A stretch of DNA of 32,000 nt, from the NCBI RefSeq assembly GCF_000981785.2, contig NZ_CP011304.1, positions 4,262,214 to 4,294,213 on the forward strand, given 5' to 3'. The notes under the pieces were generated by a model. The model worked only from the letters and a program-made list of their open reading frames with translations. It had not been told where the DNA came from and did no database searches. Within the stretch, counting starts at the first letter, position 1. The number at the start of each line of letters is the position of its first letter. This DNA is from Microcystis aeruginosa NIES-2549. GTDB taxonomy: Bacteria; Cyanobacteriota; Cyanobacteriia; Cyanobacteriales; Microcystaceae. A program made the position numbers and the translations under genes. Positions 5,416 through 32,000 of the stretch are shown in pieces.

Positions 5416-5450
5416 TCCCCCGCTAACCGCTCGCGCGGTGTAGCGGGGGA
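5416..5450 (-). other. subterminal hairpin of the IS right end (expected 3' part of the TnpB omega-RNA region)
   Basis: tcccccgctaaccgc (5416-5430) pairs with gcggt-g-tagcggggga (5435-5450). This gives a 15-bp stem with one bulge and a 4-nt loop. It overlaps the last tnpB codons and the stop. Confidence 0.7.
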
Positions 5451-6682
5451 TTCTCGGTTCTTAGGCTTTTAACTAGATCGACCTGGTTTAACCGGTCGAT
5501 CCCCGTCAAATCGCCTCCGCGAGCGTTTTCTAACACGGTCAGTCCGACCGCGTTTTTTCCTCGGTTCTCGATTACCTTCGCTGATGCCGTATCTCTTGGT
5601 TCAATGTGGCCGCAGAAATTGCATCGGTGAACTCTTTCTGATAACGCTTTTTTGCCGGTAATCGCGCCACAATTAGGACACTCTTGCGAAGTTCCGTTTT
5701 TATCAACCTTAAGATAATATTTTCCCCGTTTCCAAACGACAAACGGTAGTATCTCGTTAATAAAACTACCGATGCCTGAATCCAGAGATTGTTTTCTAAC
5801 GATCCCTCTAGACCAGGAAACAAAGTTAATATCCTCAACGAAGATGTTATCAGCGAGATCGCAAAGGTAATGACTTAGTTTAAAGTGCCAATCTCTACGA
5901 GTATTAGACACTTTTTCGTGTAATCTTGCTATCTTCTCCTGAATTTTTAACCAATTGCTAGAGCCTTTGACTTGATGTTTCAAGCGTCTTTGTAGCAATT
6001 TAAGCTTACTCTGTACTTTCAACAAAAATCGAGGGGCTTTGATTAAATATCCCTGTGAAGTAGCGACAAAACTCTCAATTCCTGCGTCGATTCCTAAACA
6101 GGTTTTCCCAGCCGTTATATCGGGGACGGATTCTTGGGACTTAAAGGAAACCGAAACGTAAAATCCCGACGCTTTGCGGATAATTTGAGCTTGTTTAGGC
6201 TCAAACCCAGACGGGTACTCCCTAGATTTCCTAATCCGAATTTTTCCCAATTGTGGAAAATTTAAGTATTCGTCACCTAGAAAGTTTTTTGACAGCGCGG
6301 GGAAAACAAAACTTCGCATCTTTTTCTTAAATCTAGGAAAGCCGAAGCCTTTCGATTTCATGCGGTCAAACGCTTTATCTAAAGTTTTTAAGACTTGCTG
6401 TAAGACTTGAGCGTTAACCGTCTTTAATATCGGGTAAACTTTTTTAGCTTCCGTTAGATTTTTAGCTTGAACGAAGTAATTAGGATAGGGTTCATCCGCA
6501 GGAATTATGTACTCAGAAACTAGCGAACAGCGATCCGCAAGACACTTTCGAGAGTTCAACCAATCCTTCCGTTCCGAGAGCGCGTAATTGTAAACGCTCT
6601 TGCCAACATCAAGAATGTGGACGATCTCCCGTTCCTGTTGCCTGTTTACCTTTAGTTTGTACTGGTAGGTAAGCGTTATCAC
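5423..6682 (-). CDS. tnpB: RNA-guided endonuclease TnpB (IS200/IS605 OrfB)
   Basis: 419 aa with the layout N-terminal MITLTYQYKL..., a RuvC-like IDAGIESF, and the C-terminal zinc ribbon CPNCG...CNFCGHIEPRDTASAKVI. The ORF is intact. Confidence 0.9.
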   Translation of the reverse strand: MITLTYQYKLKVNRQQEREIVHILDVGKSVYNYALSERKDWLNSRKCLADRCSLVSEYIIPADEPYPNYFVQAKNLTEAKKVYPILKTVNAQVLQQVLKTLDKAFDRMKSKGFGFPRFKKKMRSFVFPALSKNFLGDEYLNFPQLGKIRIRKSREYPSGFEPKQAQIIRKASGFYVSVSFKSQESVPDITAGKTCLGIDAGIESFVATSQGYLIKAPRFLLKVQSKLKLLQRRLKHQVKGSSNWLKIQEKIARLHEKVSNTRRDWHFKLSHYLCDLADNIFVEDINFVSWSRGIVRKQSLDSGIGSFINEILPFVVWKRGKYYLKVDKNGTSQECPNCGAITGKKALSERVHRCNFCGHIEPRDTASAKVIENRGKNAVGLTVLENARGGDLTGIDRLNQVDLVKSLRTENPPLHRASG

Positions 6683-6732
6683 TGTCGTTTGTTTCGTGAT
6701 GTAGAATTAGATTATAACACTTATCGCCTAAT

Positions 6733-7163
6733 ATGTCAACCGATTATAATCATGGATTTCGCTCCGTTTATAGACTTACCGCTCATGTCGTATTCGTCAT
6801 CAAATACCGACCATTGCTATTAACAATGAAATCTTAGCCCGACTTAAAGAAATCTTGGTGTCAACGCTGACAAAATGGGAAAGCGTGTTGCTTGATTTCA
6901 ACGGTGAATCGGATCACGTTCACCGGATTATCGATTACAAACCTGAGATCGCTTTATCCAAATTAATCGCTAACCTTAAAACAGTTAGTAGTCGCTTAAT
7001 TAGAAAAGAATTTCCGTACTTAGCGGCAAAGTATTTCTACAACAAACCCTATTTTTGGACGGGAGGTTATTTCGTGGCCAGTTGTCGCGGCGTTACCATC
7101 GAACAACTAAAAAAATACGTCGATAACCAAAACTACCCGAAAGTGGAAACGCTACCGCGTTAG
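6733..7163 (+). pseudogene. tnpA: IS200/IS605 Y1 (HUH) transposase TnpA, disrupted by a 1-nt frameshift near 6811
   Basis: Frame 1 gives MSTDYNHGFRSVYRLTAHVVFVIKYRP... and stops at 6835-6837. The conserved continuation IAINNEILARLKEIL...ESDHVHRII (HUH)...KKYVDNQ (catalytic Tyr) reads in the frame starting at 6813. The two parts join only if one nucleotide is restored after cga cc. Confidence 0.8.
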
Positions 7164-17794: not shown

Positions 17795-18442
17795 ATGACC
17801 ACCACCGCCGATGATGTTTGGAAATTATTAGCCGAATTAGTAGAAGCTCAAAAAGAAACAGAAAGATGCTTTCAAGAAACCGAGCGACGCTTTCAAGAAA
17901 CCGAGCGTGTTCTCAAAGAACAATCTTTAAAAACCGAGCGACGCTTTCAAGAAACCGAGCGCATTCTCAAAGAACAATCTTTAAAAACCGATCGCCAAAT
18001 TACCAGAGTCAGTCAAGAAATTGGTAATCTTGGAGGTAAATGGGGACGTTTTGTCGAAAATATGGTAGCCCCAGCTTGTGAGACTTTATTTTTAAATCGT
18101 GATATTCCCGTACATCAAGTTAGTCAAAGAGTCAGAAAACGTCTCGACGGTAAAACCCTAGAAATTGATGTGTTAGTAACTAATGAGAATCATGTGCTAG
18201 TAGTGGAAGTCAAAAGTAGTTTAAGTGTAGATGATGTCAAAGAATTAATCAAGAATCTAACAGAATTTAGGCAATTTTTCCCAGAATATAACCAGAAACA
18301 ATTATATGGGGCAGTAGCAGGCATTGAAATCGAAGAGGGAGCGGATAAATATGCCTATCGTCAAGGTTTATTTGTCTTGGCACAAAGGGGAGAAAATGTA
18401 GCGATTCTTAACGATACTGAGTTTCAACCGAAAACGTGGTAG
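17795..18442 (+). CDS. coiled-coil / PD-(D/E)XK nuclease-fold protein (DUF3782-like), tandem copy 1
   Basis: The N-terminus carries heptad/undecad repeats (RFQETER, VLKEQSLKTER). The C-terminal half has LEIDVLVTNENHVLVVEVKSS, i.e. D ... E-x-K spaced as in PD-(D/E)XK nucleases. Confidence 0.7.
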   Translation: MTTTADDVWKLLAELVEAQKETERCFQETERRFQETERVLKEQSLKTERRFQETERILKEQSLKTDRQITRVSQEIGNLGGKWGRFVENMVAPACETLFLNRDIPVHQVSQRVRKRLDGKTLEIDVLVTNENHVLVVEVKSSLSVDDVKELIKNLTEFRQFFPEYNQKQLYGAVAGIEIEEGADKYAYRQGLFVLAQRGENVAILNDTEFQPKTW

Positions 18443-18499: not shown

Positions 18500-19135
18500 A
18501 TGACCACCACCGCCGATGACGTTTGGAAATTATTAGCCGAATTAGTAGAAGCTCAAAAAGAGACAGAAAGATGCTTTCAAGAAACCGAGCGACGCTTTCA
18601 AGAAACCGAGCGGATTCTCAAAGAACAATCGTTAGAAACCGAGCGGATTCTCAAAGAACAATCTTTAAAAACCGATCGCCAAATTACTAGACTCAGTAAA
18701 GAAATTGGTAATCTTGGCGGTAAATGGGGACGTTTTGTCGAAAATATGGTAGCTCCAGCTTGTGAGACTTTATTTTTAAATCGTCAGATTCCCGTACATC
18801 AAGTTAGTCAAAGAGTCAGAAAACGTCTCGACGGTAAAACCCTAGAAATTGATGTGTTAGTAACTAATGAAAATCATGTGCTGGTAGTGGAAGTCAAAAG
18901 TAGTTTAAGTGTAGATGATGTCAAAGAATTAATCAAGAATCTAACAGAATTTAGGCAATTTTTCCCAGAATATAACCAGAAACAATTATATGGGGCAGTA
19001 GCAGGCATTGAAATCGAAGAAGGAGCAGATAAATATGCCTATCGTCAAGGTTTATTTGTCTTGGCACAAAGGGGGGAAAATGTAGCAATTCTTAACGATA
19101 CTGAGTTTCAACCGAAAACGTGGTATGATCCTTAA
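18500..19135 (+). CDS. coiled-coil / PD-(D/E)XK nuclease-fold protein (DUF3782-like), tandem copy 2
   Basis: Near-identical to copy 1 at a 705-bp period, including about 45 bp of upstream sequence. It differs by one 7-aa repeat unit, a few substitutions and a 3-aa longer C-terminus. Confidence 0.7.
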   Translation: MTTTADDVWKLLAELVEAQKETERCFQETERRFQETERILKEQSLETERILKEQSLKTDRQITRLSKEIGNLGGKWGRFVENMVAPACETLFLNRQIPVHQVSQRVRKRLDGKTLEIDVLVTNENHVLVVEVKSSLSVDDVKELIKNLTEFRQFFPEYNQKQLYGAVAGIEIEEGADKYAYRQGLFVLAQRGENVAILNDTEFQPKTWYDP

Positions 19136-19253
19136 GCTTGTCTTTGGGAAAGTCCAGTGCGATTCTGGTACTGTGCCGCAGCTGTAATCAAGTAAAAAGT
19201 AAAAAGAGTACATCTTCCCTTTTTCCTTGCGAGTCAGAATGCCAATTACAAGT
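19136..19253 (+). promoter_or_regulatory. cobalamin (B12) riboswitch upstream of cobG-cobH-cobI
   Basis: The core GGGAAAGUCCAGUGCGAUUCUGGUACUGUGCCGCAGCUGUAA closely matches the conserved cobalamin riboswitch core (compare E. coli btuB GGGAAUCCAGUGCGAAUCUGGAGCUG...GCAGCGGUAA). A B12-box-like GAGUCAGAAUGCC lies at about 19231-19243. A possible P1 pairs gcttgt (19136-19141) with acaagt (19248-19253). Confidence 0.8.
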
Positions 19254-19319
19254 TTTTAATCGGTAGATAGACAAATATTTTCTAACTACTTCTCTGCGTC
19301 GCATGGAGAACAAACAACG

Positions 19320-20735
19320 GTGAATTGGTTAGTTGAAGCAAATGCTTGTCCTGGTTTATTTTATGGAACTGCTGCCCAGGATGGGTTTTTAATTCGTCTC
19401 CGCACCCCCGGTGGATGGCTCAATTCTCCACAGGGAAAAGCGATCGCCACTTGGCTCGAACAATGGCAGACGACAATACAAGTTACCAATCGGGCAAATC
19501 TGCAAATTCGCGGACTGCAAAAATCCCCCAGTTTAGAAGAATTTCAAACCCTGCAAAAATTAGGGTTAGCCGCCCATAATCCCAGTATCGATCATCTGCG
19601 TAATATCATGTCCAGTCCCACGGCTGGAATTGACTGTCAAGAATCGATCGATACTCGTCCATTAGTCCAAGAATTAGATAATTTTATCCAAAATTATCCA
19701 TCAATTGCCCAACTAAGTCCTAAATTTAGTATCGGCATCGATGGCGGTGGTGCAGTGGGAATTGGCACCGGTTCAACTATGGCCTGGCAACACCGCTATA
19801 ATGAGATTCAGCTATCAGCAATTGTCCTCAATAATCCGAAAAATTTAACTTCTATTCTTTGCTTTCGATTAGCCCTCGGAGGAGATAAACAATTATATGA
19901 CACGGACTTATTAATTGAGCCAGAAAACTGTTTAGCTGTGGTCAAAGCTTTAGTCACAGTTTATATCGATTATGTTCAACAAAACCCCAATATCAAGGGT
20001 AAAAAACCTCGGATGAAACACCTGCTCAAAGATTGGGGATTGACAAAATATCTCGAACAAGTTAACTACCAATTACATCGGACTTCTACCGGCATAATAC
20101 AAGGGCAAGAATACCAGCAGGCTGCCCATTCTACTCAACCCTATTTTCATCTGGGAATTCATCCTCAAAAGCAACCAGGATTATCTTATATTGGTCTATC
20201 ATTAAGATTAGGACAATTGACGGCTAATCAACTATGGGGATTAGCGGCACTATCAGAAACTTTTGGCAGTGGTCAGTTACGATTAACCCCTTGGCAGACT
20301 GTTATATTACCCGATATTCCCGATGAAAAAGTCTCAGAATTGTTGCCAAAACTGGCATCCTTAGGATTATCCGCTTCTCCCGGATGGGATGCGGGGATAG
20401 TTGCCTGTAGCGGTAAACCGGGCTGTGCGGCGGCGGCCACTGCAACTCAAATTCATGCTTCTCTCTTGGCAGATTATTTGAAAGAACACTTAACCTGCAA
20501 TTCTCCTGTTAATATTCACTTGACAGGTTGTGCTAAATCCTGCGCTCAACCGGGTCCGGCCGAAATTACCCTTTTAGGAACTACCATCGAGGAAAATGGC
20601 CAAATACTAGAAGCTTATCAAGTCTATATGGGTGATAGTCAAAAATTCTTAGAAACACCCATATTTGAGGGAGAATTTACCAAGATTCCCCCCCTCATAG
20701 CCCAAATTTTAAGCTCCCAAAAATCGAAAATTTAG
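19320..20735 (+). CDS. cobG: precorrin-3B synthase
   Basis: GTG start. Sulfite/nitrite-reductase-like repeats (NRANLQIRG, LRLTPWQTV) and a Cys cluster (CSGKPGCAAA...GCAKSC). Lies in cob gene context. Confidence 0.85.
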   Translation: MNWLVEANACPGLFYGTAAQDGFLIRLRTPGGWLNSPQGKAIATWLEQWQTTIQVTNRANLQIRGLQKSPSLEEFQTLQKLGLAAHNPSIDHLRNIMSSPTAGIDCQESIDTRPLVQELDNFIQNYPSIAQLSPKFSIGIDGGGAVGIGTGSTMAWQHRYNEIQLSAIVLNNPKNLTSILCFRLALGGDKQLYDTDLLIEPENCLAVVKALVTVYIDYVQQNPNIKGKKPRMKHLLKDWGLTKYLEQVNYQLHRTSTGIIQGQEYQQAAHSTQPYFHLGIHPQKQPGLSYIGLSLRLGQLTANQLWGLAALSETFGSGQLRLTPWQTVILPDIPDEKVSELLPKLASLGLSASPGWDAGIVACSGKPGCAAAATATQIHASLLADYLKEHLTCNSPVNIHLTGCAKSCAQPGPAEITLLGTTIEENGQILEAYQVYMGDSQKFLETPIFEGEFTKIPPLIAQILSSQKSKI

Positions 20736-20744
20736 ATAAATAGA

Positions 20745-21371
20745 ATGGAATACATTAAGAATGGTGAGGAAATTTACCGCAAATCTTTTGCTATTATTCG
20801 GGCTGAAACTAACTGGGAAAATCTCCCCGATGATTTAGCTCATGTGGCGGTTCGTCTAATTCATTCCTGTGGGATGACAGACATAACAGAAGATTTAGAA
20901 GCATCACCGGATGCAGTTAAAATCGGACGAAATGCCCTCGCTGGGGGTGCAGCAATTCTCTGTGATTCTCAAATGGTCGCTAATGGCATTACCAAAGCCC
21001 GTTTACCTAAAAATAATCCGATTATTTGTACCCTCAATCATCCAGAAGTGACCGAATTAGCACGGCAAATTAATAATACTCGCTCCGCTGCCGCTTTAGA
21101 ACTTTGGCGACGTCATTTAGCTGGAGCAGTGGTGGCCATTGGTAATGCACCAACCGCACTTTTTCGCCTGCTAGAATTGCTCGATCAAAATGTAGATAAA
21201 CCGGCTTTGATTTTAGGCTTTCCCGTGGGATTTGTAGGAGCGGCAGAGTCGAAAATAGAATTAGCAACTAATAGTCGTGGCGTGCCATTTATTACCCTGC
21301 ACGGACGCAGGGGAGGAAGCGCAATCGCAGCAGCAGCAGTCAATGCTTTAGCAAAAGAGAACGAATTATGA
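20745..21371 (+). CDS. cobH: precorrin-8X methylmutase
   Basis: 208 aa with LIHSCGM, IGNAPTALFRLLEL and GFPVGFVGAAESK, typical of CobH/CbiC. Confidence 0.9.
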   Translation: MEYIKNGEEIYRKSFAIIRAETNWENLPDDLAHVAVRLIHSCGMTDITEDLEASPDAVKIGRNALAGGAAILCDSQMVANGITKARLPKNNPIICTLNHPEVTELARQINNTRSAAALELWRRHLAGAVVAIGNAPTALFRLLELLDQNVDKPALILGFPVGFVGAAESKIELATNSRGVPFITLHGRRGGSAIAAAAVNALAKENEL

Positions 21372-22072
21372 ATAAATTAGGCAAACTTTATGGATTAGGA
21401 ATCGGGCCCGGTGATCCCGAATTGTTGACGCTAAAAGCACACCGAATTCTCACAACTGTTCCGGTAATTGCCTATCCTACCTTAGAAAGTGGCAAAGTTT
21501 TGGCACGGGCAATTGTGTCGGATTTTATCCGTCCCGAGCAGATAGAAATTCCCATGCCTTTACCTTTTAGTGTCGAGCGCAGTTCTCAACCTCATTATGA
21601 TATTGCCGCCGAAAATATCGCCGAACATTTAAACTTAGGTCGAGATGTGGCGGTTTTATGTGTGGGCGATCCGATGTTGTATGGCACGTTTATGTATATC
21701 TTTAATCGCTTGTGCGATCGCTTTTCCATTGAAGTCGTGCCGGGTATTTCTTCAGTGATGGCAAGTGCAGCAATGCTGGGTGTACCTATCACTTATCGAA
21801 ATGACGTATTTAGTATTATGCCCGCTACTTTAAAGGCGGAAATATTGCGGGATCGCCTAGCCTTTATCGATGCAGCAGCGATTATTAAATTAGGCAGACA
21901 TTTCGCTAAAGTTCGCGATATTCTCGAGGAATTAGGATTATTAGAACGCGCCCTCTACATCGAACGAGCAACCTTACCCAATCAGCAAATTATTCCGATT
22001 ACAGAAGTCGATCCAGAGGCTGCTACTTACTGGTCATTAATTCTGATTCCTAGTAAAACTAAACCGCAATAA
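21368..22072 (+). CDS. cobI: precorrin-2 C20-methyltransferase
   Basis: LYGLGIGPGDPELLTLKA and VGDPMLYGTF are tetrapyrrole methylase motifs. 4-nt overlap with cobH. Confidence 0.9.
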   Translation: MNKLGKLYGLGIGPGDPELLTLKAHRILTTVPVIAYPTLESGKVLARAIVSDFIRPEQIEIPMPLPFSVERSSQPHYDIAAENIAEHLNLGRDVAVLCVGDPMLYGTFMYIFNRLCDRFSIEVVPGISSVMASAAMLGVPITYRNDVFSIMPATLKAEILRDRLAFIDAAAIIKLGRHFAKVRDILEELGLLERALYIERATLPNQQIIPITEVDPEAATYWSLILIPSKTKPQ

Positions 22073-23540: not shown

Positions 23541-23629
23541 AAATGCTTATTTATGGTATTAGCTAAAGTGGTTTTCGGTGCAGCCCCGACCACTAGATCA
23601 ACTTTTTGACCCCTTTTGAGGATCATCAG
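23541..23629. repeat. diverged tandem copy of the 3' end of trxA
   Basis: 23541-23629 aligns with 23635-23723 (period 94) with about 10 mismatches. On the minus strand it would encode [33 protein letters not shown], a paralogous thioredoxin C-terminus. Confidence 0.85.
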
Positions 23630-23954
23630 GTTTCAGGTGTTTATCTATGGTATTAGCTAAAGTGGTTTTCGGTACAGCCCCGACCACCATATCAACTTTT
23701 TGACCTCCTTTGAAAATCATCAGAGTAGGAATACTGCGAATCCCGTACTGACTAGCGATATTGGGGTTTTCGTCGGTGTTGAGTTTCACCACCTTGACTT
23801 TCCCTATGAACATTTCGGCAATTTCTGCGACAACGGGAGCCACCATTCGACAAGGACCGCACCAAGGAGCCCAGAAATCCACTAGGACAAGGTCGGTACT
23901 ATCTAAAACTTCGACTTTAAAGTTGGCATCTGTAACTGCAGGAACCTCTGACAT
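23598..23954 (-). CDS. trxA: thioredoxin
   Basis: WCGPC active site and the full Trx fold pattern ([19 protein letters not shown]...[15 protein letters not shown]). The last 11 residues ([11 protein letters not shown]) come from out-of-frame reading into the duplicated segment. Confidence 0.9.
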
Positions 23955-24331
23955 ACTTAAGAAATCCTCTAGTAATCACGGTTATCTAGAATACGCAAAA
24001 ATTTCATTCTAGAGATTCGTGGTGCGATGTTGACATTCCACTGGTGAAAAGGACGAGAACTAGCTCTAAATCCAATGTAAAGGCCTTAACTTGCATCAGA
24101 GGTAGCTTCTTGGATCAATTTCACAAGGGGCATTCTTCTATTTTATAACCCTAGAGGCTCTATTTTGACTTTTTTTTGATAAAGTTTTGTAATATTGCCG
24201 GAGTCAAGCATGGGTGATGGGAGCCAGATAAAATTTTCTTGAAGAAAAACCCCAAAAGTCATCGATTTTATCTAGGCTTAACCTGAGTTTGATTATGATT
24301 GGCACAAGCCACCTCCTAATTGAGCTTTTCT

Positions 24332-24385
24332 ATGAAAATTCTGGTCTTAAATGCGGGATCGAGCAGTCAAAAAAGTTGTTTATCA
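24332..24385 (+). pseudogene. ackA: acetate kinase, 5' fragment (first about 17 codons)
   Basis: MKILVLNAGSSSQKSCL matches the AckA N-terminus (compare Synechocystis LNAGSSSQKSCLYEL). Homology stops after tgttta, and a stop follows a few codons later. Confidence 0.7.
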
Positions 24386-24488
24386 AAAATGTCGGGGTGA
24401 AGACCCTCGTACTGACGGGATGAAACCGTTCCGACATCGGCGTGAGCTTTTGTCGAACGCTGATCTCACGGCCGAAGCCCCGACCAAT

Positions 24489-25634
24489 AGACCTCTCCAA
24501 AAATTTATAAGTCAGTCACAGCAAGGAAGAGAGGCAGATTAGACCAAGAGTCAAAATTAGCTCTCAAAACCGATTAATCAGGGTTTGAAGAGACAAAATC
24601 CAATTTTGACGGAAAACTATGGCTAATTATAACGTCAATTACTTCCCCTGATTGCTCCCCTTCTATTACTTCTAAAATTAGCGCACTAATTCTCAACCTT
24701 ACTAAGCCACAAACGGTCAGTAAAACCGATTTATATCGACTTTTATTTAATCTAAATCTTTCTTGAACTACTTTAAATACTTTGACAACTCGAATTAAAT
24801 GCTCAACAAAAATTCGCCGAGATGATAAAACTTTATTTTCTTTAATTTGATTCTCGGTTAATTCTCCATTCTTAGGTTTTTTATCAGGAGTTCTGATTTG
24901 ATTTTCTCCTAGGTAAGCTTTATCTCCAATAAAAGTTTGTTGAGAATCGAATTTGCTTAAAGTTTGCCGACAGATTTTTATGTCGCTCGTCGGACCAGGT
25001 TGACCAATAACTACATCAACAATATCTTCAGCTTTTGGCAAGACAATAAATTGACTTTTTAAAGTATGTCTTTTTTGCTTTCCCGAATAATATATTTTTT
25101 GTTCTTGATAATCGGTCGGCCTCTCCACGGGCTGTTCTGCGCTATCGACAATCAACTCATAATCCCTTAATTGTTCAATTATTATTTCCTCTTCTTGGCA
25201 CTTCTTTATTTGTTCTAACAAACTTGGCGGTAACTCTCCTTCAAAAAGTTTTTGCCAATAGGTAAAGATATTATGAGCCGTTGATTCACTCACTTGAAAT
25301 ATTAGTCCTAAGATTTGAAAGCTTAGATGATGTCTTAAATAAACCAACATTAGAACAATTTGTTCCTCTTCTGATAATTTAGGAGGTGTTCCGCTTCCTG
25401 GTTGATTAATCCTAATTTTGGTTTTTTCGATTTCTGATTGGTTTTTCCGATGTATAAGTTTTCCAAGTGCCATCAGTTGTTCTAGTTGTTGGTAGTCAAT
25501 TCCTAATAGTCTTTTAGTTTGTTTCGGATATTTTTGAATGTATTCCCAAGTGTAGTTTTTCATGGCTTTTTTGAGTTACTATTTGTTTTATTATATCCTA
25601 TATATTGTGATTTAATTAAATTATGGAGAGGTCT
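24489..25634 (-). mobile_element. IS5-family / Harbinger-like (DDE_Tnp_4) insertion sequence, 1146 bp, with a 3-bp TSD
   Basis: Terminal inverted repeats are AGACCTCTCCAAAAATTTAT (24489-) and AGACCTCTCCATAATTTAAT (reverse complement, ending at 25634). They are flanked by direct AAT at 24486-24488 and 25635-25637. Confidence 0.85.
24574..25563 (-). CDS. IS5-family DDE transposase (HTH + DDE_Tnp_4 type)
   Basis: 329 aa. The DDE triad context is LIVDSAEQPVERP ... YYSGKQKRHTLKSQ ... FIGDKAYLG ... RRIFVEHLIRVVK. Confidence 0.9.
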   Translation of the reverse strand: MKNYTWEYIQKYPKQTKRLLGIDYQQLEQLMALGKLIHRKNQSEIEKTKIRINQPGSGTPPKLSEEEQIVLMLVYLRHHLSFQILGLIFQVSESTAHNIFTYWQKLFEGELPPSLLEQIKKCQEEEIIIEQLRDYELIVDSAEQPVERPTDYQEQKIYYSGKQKRHTLKSQFIVLPKAEDIVDVVIGQPGPTSDIKICRQTLSKFDSQQTFIGDKAYLGENQIRTPDKKPKNGELTENQIKENKVLSSRRIFVEHLIRVVKVFKVVQERFRLNKSRYKSVLLTVCGLVRLRISALILEVIEGEQSGEVIDVIISHSFPSKLDFVSSNPD

Positions 25635-25749
25635 AATATAAAACAGCGAAGCACGATTAAATCCTTGACAGTTTAGCCTTGCATAGTTTATCATAGTAAA
25701 TATGGTTTGATAAACAAAATGTTAAAAGCGTTTAAGTACAGAATCTATC

Positions 25750-28120
25750 GTGCGACTCGTTCCTACCAAAAGTCTAACAGACGTGGGTAGGACAAGGTTG
25801 AGAACCTTGATAACTCAATAACCGTGAAGGTGAAAGTCCTTCCCTCCAGATGATGGAGTGACAGCATAACCCCTTCCTGTGGAGAACGGTCATCAAAATG
25901 GGAAAAGCGGGGTTAAATGGCAGTAAAGATGAATCTGACATCAAAACCTGTCTAGCATCTAACTATGTGTATGAATAAGAACTTCCGTCAGAAGTATCGT
26001 CACTGAAACCTAGCCTACACAGATTATTGGCTGGCAACAAAATGTTAACAAGCTAACGTACTGGGAAAAGATAGAGTTCAACCAGAATCATCTACACAGC
26101 TTCGGTATAGAGGAAGACACTAAAGTTAGGAATACGGTTGTTGGGAACGAAGTAATCCTTATGAATCTCTTAGATAGGTCGAAATCTAAGTAGTAACCAG
26201 CGTAAGACTCATATAGGAAAGGATTGTGTAAGAAGCCAACGCCTATCTGTAATAGATAAGGATATGCTGACGTACACACTGTTCAATGGAATGAATGGTC
26301 TTAAGTAGTAATGAAAAAGTTATGAACACGGCAACAAAACCGATGTATGAATGGAAGGACATCAACTGGCGAAAAGCTGAAAGATGTGTTTTTAAGTTAT
26401 CAAAAAGAATATTCAAAGCCAGTCAACGGGGTGATGTCAAATTAGTCCACAAATTACAAAGGCTACTCCTAAAAAGCTGGTACGCCAAACTGATAGCCGT
26501 CAGACGGGTTAGCCAAGATAATCAAGGCAAGAAAACCGCAGGGGTAGATGGGATAAAATCCTTAACACCCAAACAAAGAATGGCACTTGTCAATAATCTA
26601 AAACCTGGCAATAAATCAAAACCAACTCGTAGAGTATGGATACCAAAACCCAATACGGATGAAAAGCGACCTCTAGGGATTCCCACCATGTACGAACGGG
26701 CATTACAAGCCTTAGTAAAACTGGCATTAGAACCCGAATGGGAAGCAAAATTTGAACCTAACAGTTATGGATTTAGACCAGCACGTTCAGCCCATGACGC
26801 AATCGGAGCAATCTACATAAGCATCAACAAAAAGCCCAAATATGTGCTAGATGCGGACATAAGTAAATGCTTTGATAAAATAAACCACCAGAAACTACTG
26901 ACAAAACTTCAAACTTACCCCAAGCTAAGACAACAAATCAAAGCATGGCTAAAGAGTGGAGTCATGGATGGAAAAAACCTATTCCCTACCAATGAAGGCA
27001 CACCACAGGGAGGTGTAATCTCCCCTTTACTAGCTAACATAGCCTTACACGGCATGGAAGAAAGAGTTAAGCAATATGCAAAAACTCTGAAAGGCAATAA
27101 ATCCAAAAATGAACAAGCCTTAACCCTAATCAGATATGCAGATGATTTTGTTATCCTGCACGAAGATTTAAAGGTAATAAAGGAATGTCAAGAAATCATT
27201 AAACAATGGTTAGCAGAAATGGGGCTAGAACTGAAGCCTAGTAAAACAAGAATATCCCATACTCTTGAAACTTATGATGATTACGTTGGATTTGATTTTC
27301 TCGGATTCAACATCAGGCAATACCAAGTCGGAAAACATCACGGGGCAAAAAGTAGTAAAGGAGTCAAACTAGGTTTTAAAACCCTAATCAAGCCTAGTGC
27401 TGAAAAAGTCAAGTCCCATCTAAAGAAATTGGGAGAAGTAGTAAATAGTCAGAAGTCATCCCCACAGGATGCCTTAATCAAACGACTCAATCCAATCATT
27501 AGAGGATGGAGCAATTACTATTCATCAGTAGTAAGCTCAAAAACATTCACAGATTGTGATTACTACTTCTTTGAAAAACTCAAGAGATGGGCATACAGAC
27601 GACACCCAATGAAAAACAAAACTTGGATAATGCGTAAATATTGGCATACTGAGGGAAAAGATAATTGGGTATTCAGCACAAGAGGAGGTAAAAACCCCTT
27701 CAAACTGGCAAGACACCTAGATACAAAAATCGTAAGATACGTCAAGGTGAAAGGGGATAAAAGTCCCTATGATGGGGATTTAATATACTGGAGTAGTCGA
27801 ATGGGTAAACACCCAGAAATGCCACCAGAAAAAGCTATTCTACTCAAAAGACAGCAAGGACGTTGTGCATATTGTGGACTATATTTCCAAGATGGAGACA
27901 TACTCGAAACCGACCACATTATCCCTAAATCAAAAGGGGGTAAAAACAATCGAGATAATAAACAGTTACTCCATCGACATTGCCACGATTCTAAAACTGC
28001 ATTAGATAAAACTGGTACTCATGACAAAGAGCCATTGGAGAGAGGAGCGGTGTGAGGTGAAAGTCTCACGCACCGTTTTGAAGCCGAGCCAGAATGGTGA
28101 CATATCTGGCTTAGGGCAAC
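25750..28120 (+). mobile_element. bacterial group II intron (2371 nt) with an intron-encoded RT-maturase-HNH protein
   Basis: The 5' end is GUGCGAC and the 3' end is ...AAC. Domain V (28045-28078) is GAGCGGUGUGAGGUGAAAGUCUCACGCACCGUUU, close to the DV consensus with the AGC triad and a GAAA loop. Domain VI has a stem of 28087-28093 with 28105-28111 and a bulged A at 28113, 7 nt from the 3' splice site. Removing the intron precisely restores the conserved TnpB N-terminus. A tentative EBS1 gataga (26070-26075) pairs with IBS1 tctatc (25744-25749). Confidence 0.88.
26295..28055 (+). CDS. group II intron reverse transcriptase / maturase with a C-terminal HNH endonuclease domain
   Basis: RT motifs (RRVWIPKPN...KRPLGIPT, FDKINH, GTPQGGVISPLLANI, YADDFVIL), an X/maturase region (LNPIIRGWSNYY) and HNH (CAYCG...DHIIPKSKGGKNNRDNKQLLHRHCH). 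The start may be the internal M at 26322. Confidence 0.92.
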   Translation: MVLSSNEKVMNTATKPMYEWKDINWRKAERCVFKLSKRIFKASQRGDVKLVHKLQRLLLKSWYAKLIAVRRVSQDNQGKKTAGVDGIKSLTPKQRMALVNNLKPGNKSKPTRRVWIPKPNTDEKRPLGIPTMYERALQALVKLALEPEWEAKFEPNSYGFRPARSAHDAIGAIYISINKKPKYVLDADISKCFDKINHQKLLTKLQTYPKLRQQIKAWLKSGVMDGKNLFPTNEGTPQGGVISPLLANIALHGMEERVKQYAKTLKGNKSKNEQALTLIRYADDFVILHEDLKVIKECQEIIKQWLAEMGLELKPSKTRISHTLETYDDYVGFDFLGFNIRQYQVGKHHGAKSSKGVKLGFKTLIKPSAEKVKSHLKKLGEVVNSQKSSPQDALIKRLNPIIRGWSNYYSSVVSSKTFTDCDYYFFEKLKRWAYRRHPMKNKTWIMRKYWHTEGKDNWVFSTRGGKNPFKLARHLDTKIVRYVKVKGDKSPYDGDLIYWSSRMGKHPEMPPEKAILLKRQQGRCAYCGLYFQDGDILETDHIIPKSKGGKNNRDNKQLLHRHCHDSKTALDKTGTHDKEPLERGAV

Positions 28121-28451
28121 CGACCAGTGAGCAATCCGTTTTGCTTGCCAAGTCGTTTGGCTGTGCTAGATGGTTTTACAATTACGCTCTAAACTTGACA
28201 TCCGAAACTTACAAGCAAACTGGAAAAGGATTAAGCAGAGACGAAATAATTAAGCTGCTGCCTTCCCTAAAAAAAAGTATGAGTGGTTAAGCGAAGTACC
28301 ATCGCAGGTATTACAACAAGCCGCTTTAAATCTTTCTAGTGCTTTCCTTAACTTTTTTGAAGGTAGAGCTAAATATCCTAACTTCAAGAAAAAACAGAAT
28401 AGGCAGTCGATTAGATTTCCTCAGCACTGTAAGTTAAAAAATGATGTTCTG

Positions 28452-28554
28452 GTATTAAGTAGTCGTGCAAAATAAATTTCCTAGTGAAGATAGGCAAGAG
28501 GCAATAGGCAAGAGGCAAAAGCTTTATCGAAATGTGTAATTAATGTTGCTTAGG
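28452..28554. mobile_element. roughly 103-bp insertion (MITE-like or footprint) inside tnpB
   Basis: Deleting exactly 28452-28554 joins ...KLKNDVL to YLPKIGEVHC... in frame and with the spacing seen in TnpB proteins. The insert contains stops and an internal direct repeat (ggcaagaggcaa taggcaagaggcaa). GGTA occurs at both junctions. Confidence 0.5.
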
Positions 28555-29407
28555 TACTTACCTAAAATTGGTGAAGTCCATTGCCAAGTTTCACGGCAAC
28601 CAGAGGGAGACTTAAAGTCTGTTACGGTTTCAGTTAATCCATCAGGAGAATATTTCGCATCTTGTCTTTATGATGATGGTCAGGATTTACCCCAAAAATT
28701 AACAGAAGGAAAAACTATCGGGATAGACGTTGGACTAACCCATTTTGCTATTACATCAGATGGGACTAAACACGGGAATCCTCAATACTACCGTAAGTAC
28801 GAACAGAGATTAGCGAGGAGACAAAAGAAACTTAGTCGCAAGCAAAAAGGGTCTAACAACCGCAATAAAGCTAGAGTTAAAGTTGCTAAAGTTCACTCTA
28901 AAATTGTTCGTTGTCGTGAAGATTTTCTGCACAAACTAAGTCGTAAATTAGTTGACGAAAACCAAGTCATAGTGATAGAAAATCTGGCAGTCAGAAACAT
29001 GATCAAGAATCAAAATCTAGCCAAGTCAATTAGTGATGCTGGTTGGGGTCAATTCTGTACCATGTTGAAATATAAAGCTGAATGGGAAGGGAAAATTTAT
29101 CTTGAAGTAAATAGATTTTTTCCTAGTTCCAAGACTTGTAGTAACTGCTTAAATCGTGTTGATAGTTTGAGTTTAGATATTCGTAGTTGGCAATGTCCTA
29201 AGTGTGGAGAAACCCACGATAGAGACATCAATGCCGCTAAGAATATTCGAGATGAAGGTTTACGAATTTTGGCGGTAGGGCATACCGCTACTGCTTCTGG
29301 AGGGAGAGTAAGACCAAGTAAAGGCACTGCTTTTGCAAGGCATCTCCCCGTGAATGAAGAATCCCTCGCTTCAGTGCTTCGGGGAGTGTCAACCCATTCC
29401 CTGCCAA

Positions 29408-30097
29408 TGGACTGAACTGGGAATCCGTCGCTATGGTTTCCATGGCACCAGTCATCAGTACTGCTCGCAACGGGCCGCCGAATTGTTGGGAAAACCCCTA
29501 GAATCCTTGAAAATGGTGATCTGTCATCTGGGCAATGGTGCTTCCCTATCGGCAGTCAAGGGGGGTAAAAGTATCGATACCACTATGGGATTTACTCCCC
29601 TAGAGGGATTGATGATGGGAACCCGCAGCGGTACGATCAATCCAGTGATTCTGATTTATCTAGAGCGAGAATACCAATATAATCCCGATATTTTAAAGAT
29701 TTTACTGCATAAAGAATCTGGTTTAAAGGAAATTTCGGGTATTTCTGGGGATATGCGGGCAATTACGACGGCAATGGCCGAAGGCAACCAGAGGGCAAAA
29801 TTAGCATTTGAGATGTATATTCATCGTCTGAAAAGTTTAATCGGATCGATGATTGCTTCTCTGGAGGGGTTGGATGTGTTGGTATTTACGGCAGGAATCG
29901 GCGAAAATTCAGCTTTAGTACGGGAAAAAGCCAGTCAAGGCTGGTCTTTTTTGGGTTTAGAGTTAGATTTGGCTAAAAATGCCGCCCATCCCCGCGATGA
30001 GGATATCGCCACCGACACATCTAAAGTAAGAGTGATGGTAATTGCTACGGCGGAAGATTCGGCGATCGCAAGAGAATGCTGGCATTTATCCCCATAG
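29408..30097 (+). pseudogene. ackA: acetate kinase, 3' fragment (about the C-terminal 230 codons)
   Basis: WTELGIRRYGFHGTSHQYC...MVICHLGNGASLSAVKGGKSIDTTMGFTPLEGLMMGTRSG...VFTAGIGENS matches AckA from its mid-protein GIRRYGFHGTSH motif to the end. About 170 codons between the two fragments are absent from the window. Confidence 0.85.
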
Positions 30098-30101
30098 CTC
30101 C

Positions 30102-30653
30102 TTACCTTTGGCCATTCTCTTTTGGCTGTTCCGTTGTGGGAATCTCCATAATCGGATGGTTGAGAGCAATCATCAAATGGTCTCCCTCTTGGCTAATACT
30201 TCCCGGCCCGCTCGCCATTTGGGAGAGGGGATCATTGCGTCCCGAGATGAAGTAGGAACTAACAGCGATCGCCATAGCGGTAAAAATTGCGCCACCATAA
30301 ACATAATATTGCCGACGACGCTGACCATCGACTTTTCTGAACACCTGTTCTGCCAATCGGTCGCCGGCCATAGCAACCGGTACGGGGATTTGCTTTAAAT
30401 TAGTTTGTAATCCCAAGAGCTGCCGATAGAGTTTTTTAGCGGCAGCATCATGGTCTAACCAATGCTGAACTAGCTTCCTTTCCTCTACCGTTACTTCGTT
30501 ATCAATATAGGCGCTAATTAAATCGAAACGATGAGCTTCTTCGTTATCCTCATCTAAGAATAAAATATCCTCGGTTGCGGGGTTGGAATCGCCCTCATCG
30601 TGACGTAACAAAGACTTGATCCATTGAACGTCTTCGGGTTGATAATTATTCAT
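30102..30653 (-). CDS. anti-sigma factor (single-pass membrane protein), partner of the upstream ECF sigma
   Basis: LISAYIDNEVTVEERKLVQHWLDHDAAAKKLYRQLLGL resembles the anti-sigma N-terminal helix. A single TM helix is YVYGGAIFTAMAIAVSSYFI. It lies immediately downstream of the sigma gene. The open frame extends to 30686, but the MNNYQ start at 30653 is more likely. Confidence 0.65.
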   Translation of the reverse strand: MNNYQPEDVQWIKSLLRHDEGDSNPATEDILFLDEDNEEAHRFDLISAYIDNEVTVEERKLVQHWLDHDAAAKKLYRQLLGLQTNLKQIPVPVAMAGDRLAEQVFRKVDGQRRRQYYVYGGAIFTAMAIAVSSYFISGRNDPLSQMASGPGSISQEGDHLMIALNHPIMEIPTTEQPKENGQR

Positions 30654-30766
30654 GGTTGACCTCGACCAGAAGCGATCGGTATACAATCACTTTTCACCAG
30701 CACGTAGCTAGTTAACTTTAACGACTCCTCACTTCGACCCTTAGTGCCGAATCACCACAATTTTCC

Positions 30767-31423
30767 TTAGCCTTCCGTAAAATAGGGCTGTAAAACAGAT
30801 TGTAATTTAGCGCGAGCGCGAGCAATGCGAGATTTAACAGTTCCTAAAGAAACTCCTGTGATCTCGGCAATTTCTTCGTAGGCCATGCCTTCAATTTCTC
30901 GGAGAATAATAGTTGTCCGAAAAGCTTCTGGTAAATCAGCGATCGCAGCCTGTAATTGATCGTAGAATTCGTGGGTGGTGAGATGTTCATCGGGACTGGG
31001 GTAATCGGACTCGATATCCCAATCGATTTCGCCATCTTCCACGCGCCGGGGAGCATCCAGAGAAATGGGGTGATTAACCCGCTTGCGTTTCCGCAATTCG
31101 TCGTAAAAAAGATTGGTAGCAATGCGACTTAACCAACCACGGAACTTGAGGGGTTCATGGAGACGGTTAATATTGCGATAGACGCGAATCCAGACCTCTT
31201 GAGCCAAATCGGCGCGATCTTGCCAATCGGGAGCCAAATGATAGAGTAATTTATCAACATGAGCCTGATAGCGCCGCAGCAGTTCCGCAAAGGCTGCTCG
31301 ATCGGGCTGGCACCCTTCCTGACAGCGTGCAATCAGATCGTAGTTGGAGAGTTTGTCAGGGGACAAGGGGTTTTGAGACTTTTTGGCCTCAAGTGACCAA
31401 GATGCTGGAATCGATTGACTCAT
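30767..31423 (-). CDS. RNA polymerase sigma-70 family ECF-type sigma factor (SigG-like)
   Basis: Region 2 is DRADLAQEVWIRVYRNINRL...FRGWLSRIATNLFYDELRKR. Region 4 is the HTH YEEIAEITGVSLGTVKSRIARARAKL. Confidence 0.9.
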   Translation of the reverse strand: MSQSIPASWSLEAKKSQNPLSPDKLSNYDLIARCQEGCQPDRAAFAELLRRYQAHVDKLLYHLAPDWQDRADLAQEVWIRVYRNINRLHEPLKFRGWLSRIATNLFYDELRKRKRVNHPISLDAPRRVEDGEIDWDIESDYPSPDEHLTTHEFYDQLQAAIADLPEAFRTTIILREIEGMAYEEIAEITGVSLGTVKSRIARARAKLQSVLQPYFTEG

Positions 31424-31819
31424 GGGATTTCCTCAAGGGTATAAACTCCTCACTCAGGGCTTGAGGACGGGAGAAGTTAGCAAAGGTTCCCGAAAATAAA
31501 TAATTTTTTTTCTATATCTTGATTCTAACTGATCGAACCGATCTGAATCAGGTTGGTAGTTGCTGGACTGGGATTTGAGCGGGGCATTCAATCTCGTTCG
31601 GCCACGGGGCTAAAAACCTTACTAAGCAGTTATTTCAGCCATTGCATCCCTATTTGATGCCTAAACAGTTCCCACTTATGAGAAACGCTGTCACCACCAT
31701 CAAGAGCTAATTAGAACAAAATTACTATACAAAAATACCCCGCCAGAAAAAGGGGAAATAGCCGAAAGGCTGATGTAGCAAGGGATAGAAAAAAGATCAA
31801 AAAATTTTGCCAAAAGGGG

Positions 31820-31848
31820 TTGACAAACCTGGGGAAGTTAGATACATT
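31820..31848 (+). promoter_or_regulatory. candidate strong sigma-70 promoter firing toward the window end
   Basis: TTGACA (31820-31825), an exact 17-nt spacer, then TACATT (31843-31848). It is followed by at least 150 nt of non-coding, A-rich leader with no ORF before the window ends. Confidence 0.4.
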
Positions 31849-32000
31849 GGTAAATGCGCGGTTGAAGCAAAGCGAAAGCGAAGCGAAACAAACGACGCTG
31901 GAACCTAGACAAAACAATAGTTTGAAAGCCAAGTAAAACAGCCTCGTTTAGAAGCAATTCTATAACAAAGAAGTCAAACCCGCAAGGGGGAGACGAAAAA

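Follow-up and report, generated by a model that had tools for sequence, protein, structure and literature searches.

A decayed tnpB element in the ackA remnant of Microcystis aeruginosa NIES-2549 lies at a 449-bp deletion bounded by the element's own target motifs

The acetate kinase gene (ackA) of Microcystis aeruginosa NIES-2549 was analyzed in a window of 32,000 nucleotides, which corresponds to positions 4,262,214 to 4,294,213 of the forward strand of contig NZ_CP011304.1 (assembly GCF_000981785.2). All coordinates given below are those of this window. In it, ackA is a dead remnant wrecked by mobile DNA: two pieces of the gene are separated by a tnpB transposable element, and 449 bp of coding sequence have been lost at the exact point where the element sits. 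The case is one of ordinary gene decay by known processes, and it is well resolved.

The 5' piece of ackA comprises nt 1-52 of the gene at 24332-24383 (MKILVLNAGSSSQKSCL plus 1 nt, that is, 17 codons plus 1 nt). Its 3' terminus is TTGTTTAT, and the TTTAT at 24379-24383 is the target motif (transposon-adjacent motif, TAM) of the tnpB element. The 3' piece contains nt 502-1206 (codons 168-401) at 29393-30097, starts with PIPCQWTELGIRRY / PIPCQWTELGIRRYGFHG and covers positions 168-392 of the Pfam profile Acetate_kinase (PF00871) with E=1e-90. When the window was aligned to an intact Microcystis ackA locus (L001), the 5' piece and the DNA upstream of it (24295-24383) matched L001 60-148 with 95.5% identity over 89 nt (E=6e-36), and 29393-32000 matched L001 598-3198 with 94.3% identity. 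An anti-sigma-like gene and the gene of an extracytoplasmic function (ECF) sigma factor were found downstream of ackA in all of the loci (e.g., L001 and L002), and thioredoxin and dprA upstream of it in related Microcystis alleles. The two-block alignment and the downstream synteny mean that both fragments belong to one gene and that the N-terminal match is not due to chance. The first-pass annotation of this DNA, made from the letters alone, had already recognized both fragments; its approximate limits, 24385 for the end of the N-terminus and 29408 for the resumption of the gene, were replaced by the exact values of 24383 and 29393 (the latter 15 nt earlier) once the L001 alignment was available.

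A full-length AckA domain (profile positions 1-392) in one frame was not found, since only codons 1-17 and profile positions 168-392 are left. The nearest AckA cluster has 646 members, which are 401-aa proteins from M. aeruginosa and M. flos-aquae, no identical protein is on record for the 247-aa open reading frame (ORF) of the ackA 3' piece in an exact-protein look-up, and no second ackA was detected within the window. The ratio of non-synonymous to synonymous substitution rates (dN/dS) was 0.24 between the remnant and intact ackA, compared with 0.057 between intact ackA genes and 0.037 for the neighbouring sigma factor gene used as controls. Such a raised ratio fits a pseudogene that is already somewhat old, and the strain may lack acetate kinase activity. 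No paper connecting Microcystis with an ackA pseudogene was found in the literature.

The DNA absent from the window corresponds to L001 149-597, a total of 449 nt. This is equivalent to ackA codons 18-167, about 150 codons instead of the 170 or so estimated in the first pass, and the length is not a multiple of 3. In the intact gene the two junctions read TTGTTTAT followed by ACGATT (site 1) and CTCTTTAT followed by CCCATT (site 2), so both cuts are located directly 3' of TTTAT. On the coding strand of ackA, TTTAT (and even TTAT) occurs at only four sites, ending at nt 52, 501, 768, and 1198, and these four positions are unchanged in a relative at only 84% identity. The breakpoints coincide with the first and the second of the four, and the chance of a random right breakpoint hitting a TTTAT site is p about 3/1154. 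Since both breakpoints lie 3' of TTTAT, the deletion spans one target motif to the next. The loss is thus bounded by the target motifs of the tnpB element itself. The first-pass proposal that this was not a simple insertion, and that it involved recombination between two copies or else a deletion next to the element, named the right class of event, now sharpened by the TTTAT breakpoints; the comparison with the intact ackA of relatives that it recommended is what identified the left-junction motif and fixed the breakpoints.

The DNA between the two pieces belongs to an IS605-family tnpB element, as had been annotated, and its tnpB carries the Pfam domains HTH_OrfB_IS605, OrfB_IS605 (RuvC), and Cas12f1-like_TNB (zinc finger) with E=1e-14, 1e-30, and 2e-26, respectively. 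The element and the features inside it are the following:

24384-29392, forward strand: IS200/IS605 element without tnpA (tnpB-only, IS1341-type), from CAAAAATGTCGGGG... to ...GGGGAGTGTCAA, with ends placed by comparison with seven other Microcystis copies
24391-24485, forward strand: left-end hairpin with the stem GTCGGGGT / GCCCCGAC, obtained when the DNA of both the window and L004 was folded, and interrupted here by a 52-nt insert
24428-24479, forward strand: 52-nt insert in the loop of the left-end hairpin, shared by the disrupted ackA alleles and missing from L004 and L024, although their left ends are of the same type
24489-25634, reverse strand: IS5-family insertion sequence (IS) of 1146 bp, with inverted repeats of about 20-21 nt and an AAT target duplication at 24486-24488 and 25635-25637
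24574-25563, reverse strand: transposase of this IS, 329 aa (Pfam DDE_Tnp_4, HTH_Tnp_4, DDE_Tnp_1)
25665-25694, forward strand: promoter-like site TTGACA-18-TATCAT, 11/12 matches, in a conserved left-end block just upstream of tnpB
25719-25749, forward strand: tnpB exon 1, MLKAFKYRIY plus 1 nt, whose last 6 nt (TCTATC) are intron-binding site 1 (IBS1)
25750-28120, forward strand: group II intron of 2371 nt, GTGCG...GGCAAC, at tnpB codon 10/11 in the sense orientation
28121-29392, forward strand: tnpB exon 2, open apart from the 1-nt deletion at 28275/28276
28458-28557, forward strand: 100-nt insert with a TTA duplication at 28455-28457 and 28558-28560 (103 extra nt in total) and a 14-nt tandem motif
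29243-29392, forward strand: conserved structured RNA region (omega-RNA-like scaffold) detected with RNAalifold, overlapping the 3' end of tnpB and the right end

The ends of the element were set by alignment to the uninterrupted copies L003, L005, L006, L007, and L024, plus L004 and L118, and this comparison with other tnpB copies, also suggested in the first pass, fixed them at 24384 and 29392. The left end begins with C(A/G)AAAAT. TTTAT lies directly before it in seven other Microcystis copies (GTTAT in one of them), so that, with the window, eight Microcystis copies have the motif before their left end, once as GTTAT, and the flanks vary. The right end closes with GGGAGTGTCAA (GTCAA terminus) throughout the family. 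Neither a target duplication nor terminal inverted repeats accompany the element. A gene for a Y1 (HUH) TnpA was not found in 24384-29392 and, therefore, the element is non-autonomous. A scan with the TnpB C-terminus, using one genome per species, returned 485 relatives, the closest of which are from Microcystis (91-97% aa identity). Elsewhere in the window, an unrelated IS200/IS605 element occupies 5423-7163 and contains an intact 419-aa tnpB ORF (5423-6682, reverse strand) and a truncated tnpA (6855-7163, forward strand; 102 aa matching only positions 35-121 of the Y1_Tnp profile), which is the sole tnpA in the window.

The terminal hairpin of the right end, at 29340-29392, covaries in the family (in L004 it is formed by CCCTCGCA...TGCGATGGG), but substitutions have degraded it in the window and in the orthologous alleles. 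Because the left-end hairpin is split as well, both ends of the element look crippled. In the last ~150 nt, RNAalifold found compensatory changes in 12 of the 26 consensus pairs when 43 family members were compared. This structure is as expected of an omega-RNA scaffold, whose putative guide would be the flank CCCATTCCCTGCCAAT, that is, the first ~16-20 nt of the ackA 3' piece. An Rfam search (E<=1) gave no relevant match for this right-end region or for the 5' region of the intron. Within the element, the tnpB ORF of the family meets no stop and continues past the structured right end into flanking DNA; the stop codon lies at 29413-29415, inside ackA, in the window, and four codons beyond the right end in L003 (L003 3740-3775). 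When the window's tnpB was repaired in silico (intron spliced, G restored, and 103 nt removed), an uninterrupted TnpB ORF of 407 aa was obtained, and the intron, the frameshift and the 103 nt are therefore the sole lesions inactivating tnpB. The left-end block with the promoter-like site is conserved in about 60 family loci. Since this site survives downstream of the IS5 insertion, the intron and its protein may still be expressed from the predicted left-end promoter.

Four insertions were found side by side in the tnpB element, together with the 1-nt frameshift. The depth of nesting is thus two, not the four levels that had been proposed, and the 52-nt insert had been overlooked. All of these secondary insertions were delimited by empty sites in other copies or alleles. 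The 1146-bp IS5/Harbinger-type IS, its inverted repeats and its AAT duplication agree with the first description, and L004 proves the duplication with its empty site CCGACCAATATAAAAC. Seven more copies of this IS, 100% identical, were detected in M. aeruginosa CP012375/CP025929 with AAT, ATT, or GTT duplications (eight copies with the window), which means that it was recently active. The frameshift and the insertion of roughly 103 bp noted in the first pass were also recovered: the former is the loss of a G that changes AAAAAAAGAG into AAAAAAAAG at 28275/28276, and the latter consists of 100 nt plus the 3-nt TTA duplication, with the empty site GGTATTACC present in L090 and all other copies. 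Both small inserts were compared with the features of a miniature inverted-repeat transposable element. The 100-nt insert has the TTA duplication but no inverted repeat, and neither the window nor 130 loci contained another full copy of it, whereas terminal inverted repeats, a target duplication and further copies are all lacking for the 52-nt insert. For both inserts, the searches for additional copies returned just the orthologous alleles and short motif matches.

The group II intron that splits tnpB, likewise predicted from the letters, was supported by several lines of evidence. Its domains V and VI, at 28042-28114, were detected with Rfam (RF00029, 46.4 bits with a cut-off of 40; RF04357, 55.5 bits with a cut-off of 53), and the intron-encoded protein (26295-28055) is an uninterrupted sequence of 586 aa with the Pfam domains RVT_N, RVT_1, GIIM, and HNH, that is, a reverse transcriptase (RT)/maturase/HNH protein; an exact-protein look-up returned no identical entry for it. 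Copies without the intron read ...GAATCTATC followed directly by CGAC..., and its removal restores the exon exactly. Exon-binding site 1 (EBS1), GATAGA at 26070-26075, pairs with the IBS1 TCTATC in Microcystis, and GGTAGA pairs with TCTACC in Lyngbya, a compensatory change. The intron is 99.8-99.9% identical at the same position in two other Microcystis tnpB loci (three loci with the window). In L118/L119 it is associated with the other left-end subtype, and the exons are only 93-96% identical to those of the window. At the locus of L004 it is carried by L120-L122 and is absent from L024, the same locus in another strain. Moreover, an intron of 83.6% identity occupies the homologous codon of a divergent IS605 element with tnpA and tnpB in Lyngbya aestuarii and in mat metagenomes. 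From the presence and absence of the intron at one locus, and from the reuse of the site, the 5' end of tnpB, where the conserved YRIYP is encoded, is the predicted retrohoming target of this intron lineage. IS605 elements of Anabaena and Nostoc, including PCC 7107, have been reported to contain group II introns that encode RT-HNH proteins (PMC4810608), so the kind was already known.

Other alleles of the locus were retrieved by a look-up of the identical neighbouring thioredoxin, which yielded ten contigs (L090-L099). The features of the window were distributed among them as follows:

Site-1/left-end junction: present in L090-L097 and L099, absent from L098
52-nt insert: present in L090-L097
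Intron: present in L090-L095
Right end joined to site 2: present in L090 and L091, the contigs spanning the whole element
IS5: present in the window only, absent from L090-L095
Frameshift and 100-nt insert: present in the window, L091, and L092, absent from L090
Miniature inverted-repeat transposable element (MITE) of 163 nt in the intron ORF: present in L090-L095, absent from the window

L098 has an intact ackA at site 1 (TTTAT followed by ACGATT...) and a flank that is 98.5% identical. The 163-nt MITE has the ends GGTTCTTCCGAAC...GGTTCGGTAGAGCC and 8-9-bp target duplications, and it is inserted at the site equivalent to window 27147/27148. It breaks the intron-encoded protein in the other disrupted alleles (L090-L095), and only the intron copy of the window keeps the protein intact. 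Private changes were also observed: L090 carries a second copy of the 163-nt MITE in tnpB, at the equivalent of window 28393; L091 has lost a further 420 bp of the ackA 3' piece between ATA microhomologies (equivalent to window 29674-30094); and L092 has an IS630-like (DDE_3) insertion in tnpB, at the equivalent of window 28653.

The IS5 insertion is the latest event, since it is present in the window alone. The characters frameshift/100-nt insert and MITE are in conflict, because all four of their combinations occur, and this implies precise excision, recombination between alleles, or gene conversion among copies of the intron. Alleles that diverge at 18/832 nt (about 2%) in the 3' half of tnpB have introns just 0-1 nt apart, and a simple order for the arrival of the intron is therefore not upheld. 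The intron cannot be ordered relative to the arrival of the element in ackA either, since the same intron is present at the same site of other tnpB copies. The clear order of events read in the first pass thus holds for the late IS5 and not for the intron.

The truncated AckA proteins of the Microcystis cluster were considered as possible markers of further insertion alleles but were not informative, as they turned out to be C-terminal fragments starting from an internal Met and a few frameshifted or deleted variants. Three members of the Microcystis AckA cluster that come from metagenomes (P0129, P0002, and P0007) have a frameshift or in-frame internal deletions. These hint that ackA decay may be recurrent in the genus, although assembly errors may also account for them.

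The 449-bp loss is best read, with a confidence only a little above even, as the product of unequal homologous recombination between two copies of the element, a two-copy step that we infer from the sequence. The tnpB-only element, mobilised in trans by a Y1 TnpA, would insert 3' of TTTAT. Copies would have been present at the first and second TTTAT of ackA (nt 52 and nt 501), either on one chromosome or on different copies of the polyploid genome. Recombination between them would leave one element with the left flank of site 1 and, as right flank, the sequence that follows site 2, with 449 bp gone. The now-immobile element would then have gained the 52-nt insert, the intron (through EBS1-IBS1 pairing, at tnpB codons 9-11), the frameshift and the 100-nt insert and, last and only in the lineage of the window, the 1146-bp IS of the IS5 family, which appears to be currently active.

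Several observations weigh against this recombination. No allele with a copy at one site only, or at both, was found. A metagenome scan covering only the site-2/left-end junction (CTCTTTAT joined to CAAAAATGTCGGGG; CTTCTCTTTATCNNARATKTSGG) gave 18 hits, and all 18 were chance matches outside ackA and the element. The other diagnostic junctions are GGGAGTGTCAA joined to ACGATTTAGA, which would correspond to an element at site 1 with the 449 bp kept, and TTGTTTAT joined to CCCATTCC, which would correspond to an element-free deletion. It is also improbable a priori that two copies would land within 449 bp of each other, unless the element transposes locally. Additionally, the clean two-part chimera expected from recombination of two diverged copies was not seen, although this test is uninformative, since only the ends hold sites diagnostic of the subfamilies and every copy has a mosaic coding part. 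Finally, a one-step reaction of TnpA predicts an identical product.

This one-step reaction is the strongest of the rival explanations and a live one, although it is less probable than recombination. A single element at site 1, on single-stranded DNA, would be cut by TnpA between the right end and ACGATT and also at the next TTTAT, before CCCATT, under the direction of the left-end guide; the right end would be joined to CCCATT and a 449-nt circle released. The excision and integration chemistry of the IS608 TnpA is established, and the proposed reaction would be a hybrid of steps from both, carried over to this locus by analogy. A single insertion would suffice, site 2 is the very next TTTAT on the strand, and both breakpoints are exact cleavage-type positions, after GTCAA and after TTTAT. 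However, adjacent deletion by IS200/IS605 elements was not found in the IS608 literature searched, the element lacks tnpA, and the window's single tnpA is truncated. No sequence feature separates this product from that of recombination. If it were true, it would represent an adjacent-deletion activity undescribed for IS200/IS605, and these very abundant elements could erase host DNA from motif to motif.

Less probable still is a deletion between the two copies of TTTAT by microhomology or replication slippage, which could have preceded insertion of the element at the fused TTTAT or followed its insertion at site 2. Both sites share the 5-nt TTTAT, and the 420-bp deletion of L091, in the same gene, lies between ATA microhomologies. 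Nevertheless, the repeat is just 5 nt long with its copies 449 bp apart, no element-free deleted allele was present among those examined, and a coincidence would be needed for the repeat to be the target motif of the element and to abut its left end exactly.

An assembly artefact, in which two identical copies flanking the 449 bp were collapsed into one, is very improbable. The layout of repeat, unique sequence and repeat is the classic one for such a collapse, but the same structure was found in a complete chromosome and in at least two independent drafts spanning the element, each with private indels, and the ackA remnant is under relaxed constraint. Collapse is unlikely because these independent assemblies agree and yet hold private differences. 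The idea that the 17-codon N-terminus is a chance match, or that the fragments come from different genes, can be dismissed in view of the 89-nt match, which includes upstream non-coding DNA (E=6e-36), and the synteny on both sides.

The recombination between two element copies thus remains the preferred reading, and the value of the locus lies in its legibility. Because the element inserts at a fixed motif without target duplication, the original insertion points can still be read, and the locus constitutes a clean natural case of a transposon-associated deletion from motif to motif. It is also a concrete substrate for asking whether TnpA itself makes such deletions. The disrupted allele is present in cultured strains and in several metagenomes, which indicates a natural Microcystis lineage that has done without an intact ackA for some time; this is relevant to how a bloom-forming cyanobacterium handles acetate in the dark and during fermentation. 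Moreover, the set of alleles forms a small time series in which other mobile DNA lands in a transposon that is already dead, one of the arrivals being a group II intron lineage directed at the conserved 5' end of tnpB. The understanding of these element families is unchanged by the locus.

Other features of the window were also recorded. A 94-nt tandem duplication at 23547-23723 (1.9 copies, 90% match) is common to all ten related contigs and overlaps the 3' end of the thioredoxin gene (23598-23954, reverse strand). A cobalamin riboswitch at 19106-19264 (RF00174, 32.4 bits, just over the cut-off) lies upstream of a run of cobalamin-biosynthesis genes at 19320-22072. Two adjoining and near-identical paralogous ORFs, 17795-18442 and 18500-19135 (215 and 211 aa; Pfam DUF8196 in related loci), contain internal ETERRFQ/ILKEQSL repeats in unequal copy number.

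Compared with known systems, the youngest insertion is a typical member of the IS5 family with PIF/Harbinger-like DDE_Tnp_4: the transposase, the ~20-nt repeats, the 3-bp duplication and the many identical copies all match, with no notable difference. The deletion resembles classical IS-mediated deletion by recombination between direct repeats, which removes the DNA between two insertions and leaves one copy bordered by their outer flanks. It differs from the classical case in that the insertion sites are legible here, owing to the fixed motif and the lack of duplication, and in that no precursor alleles were found. The element itself shares with IS200/IS605 elements of the IS608/ISDra2 type the TnpB domains, the lack of terminal inverted repeats and target duplication and the insertion at a short motif; a right end closing in ...TCAA is likewise found in IS608. 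Of the subterminal hairpins typical of both ends, the left-end stem is present but interrupted by 52 nt, and the right-end one covaries in the family but is degenerate in the window. A structured RNA over the 3' end of tnpB, with a guide supplied by the flank, is also common to IS200/IS605 and is predicted here from sequence. In contrast to IS608/ISDra2, the element of the window has no tnpA and no stop codon of tnpB within the element, and this copy is dead: its tnpB is frameshifted and carries the 100-nt insert, and neither of its end hairpins is whole. IStrons (PMC4227781, PMC10690162) also combine a self-splicing-type intron with a tnpB transposon. However, the intron described here belongs to group II instead of group I, is inserted within the coding sequence of tnpB instead of forming the transposon end, and cannot splice the whole element from the ackA transcript. 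A further likeness, as judged by description, is to the cyanobacterial group II introns encoding RT/maturase/HNH proteins within IS605-family elements reported by Kapitonov, Makarova, and Koonin (2016; PMC4810608). What the present case adds to that report is a defined homing site, directly after ...GAATCTAYC at tnpB codon 10/11, which is used at three Microcystis loci and one Lyngbya locus and is accompanied by EBS1/IBS1 covariation.

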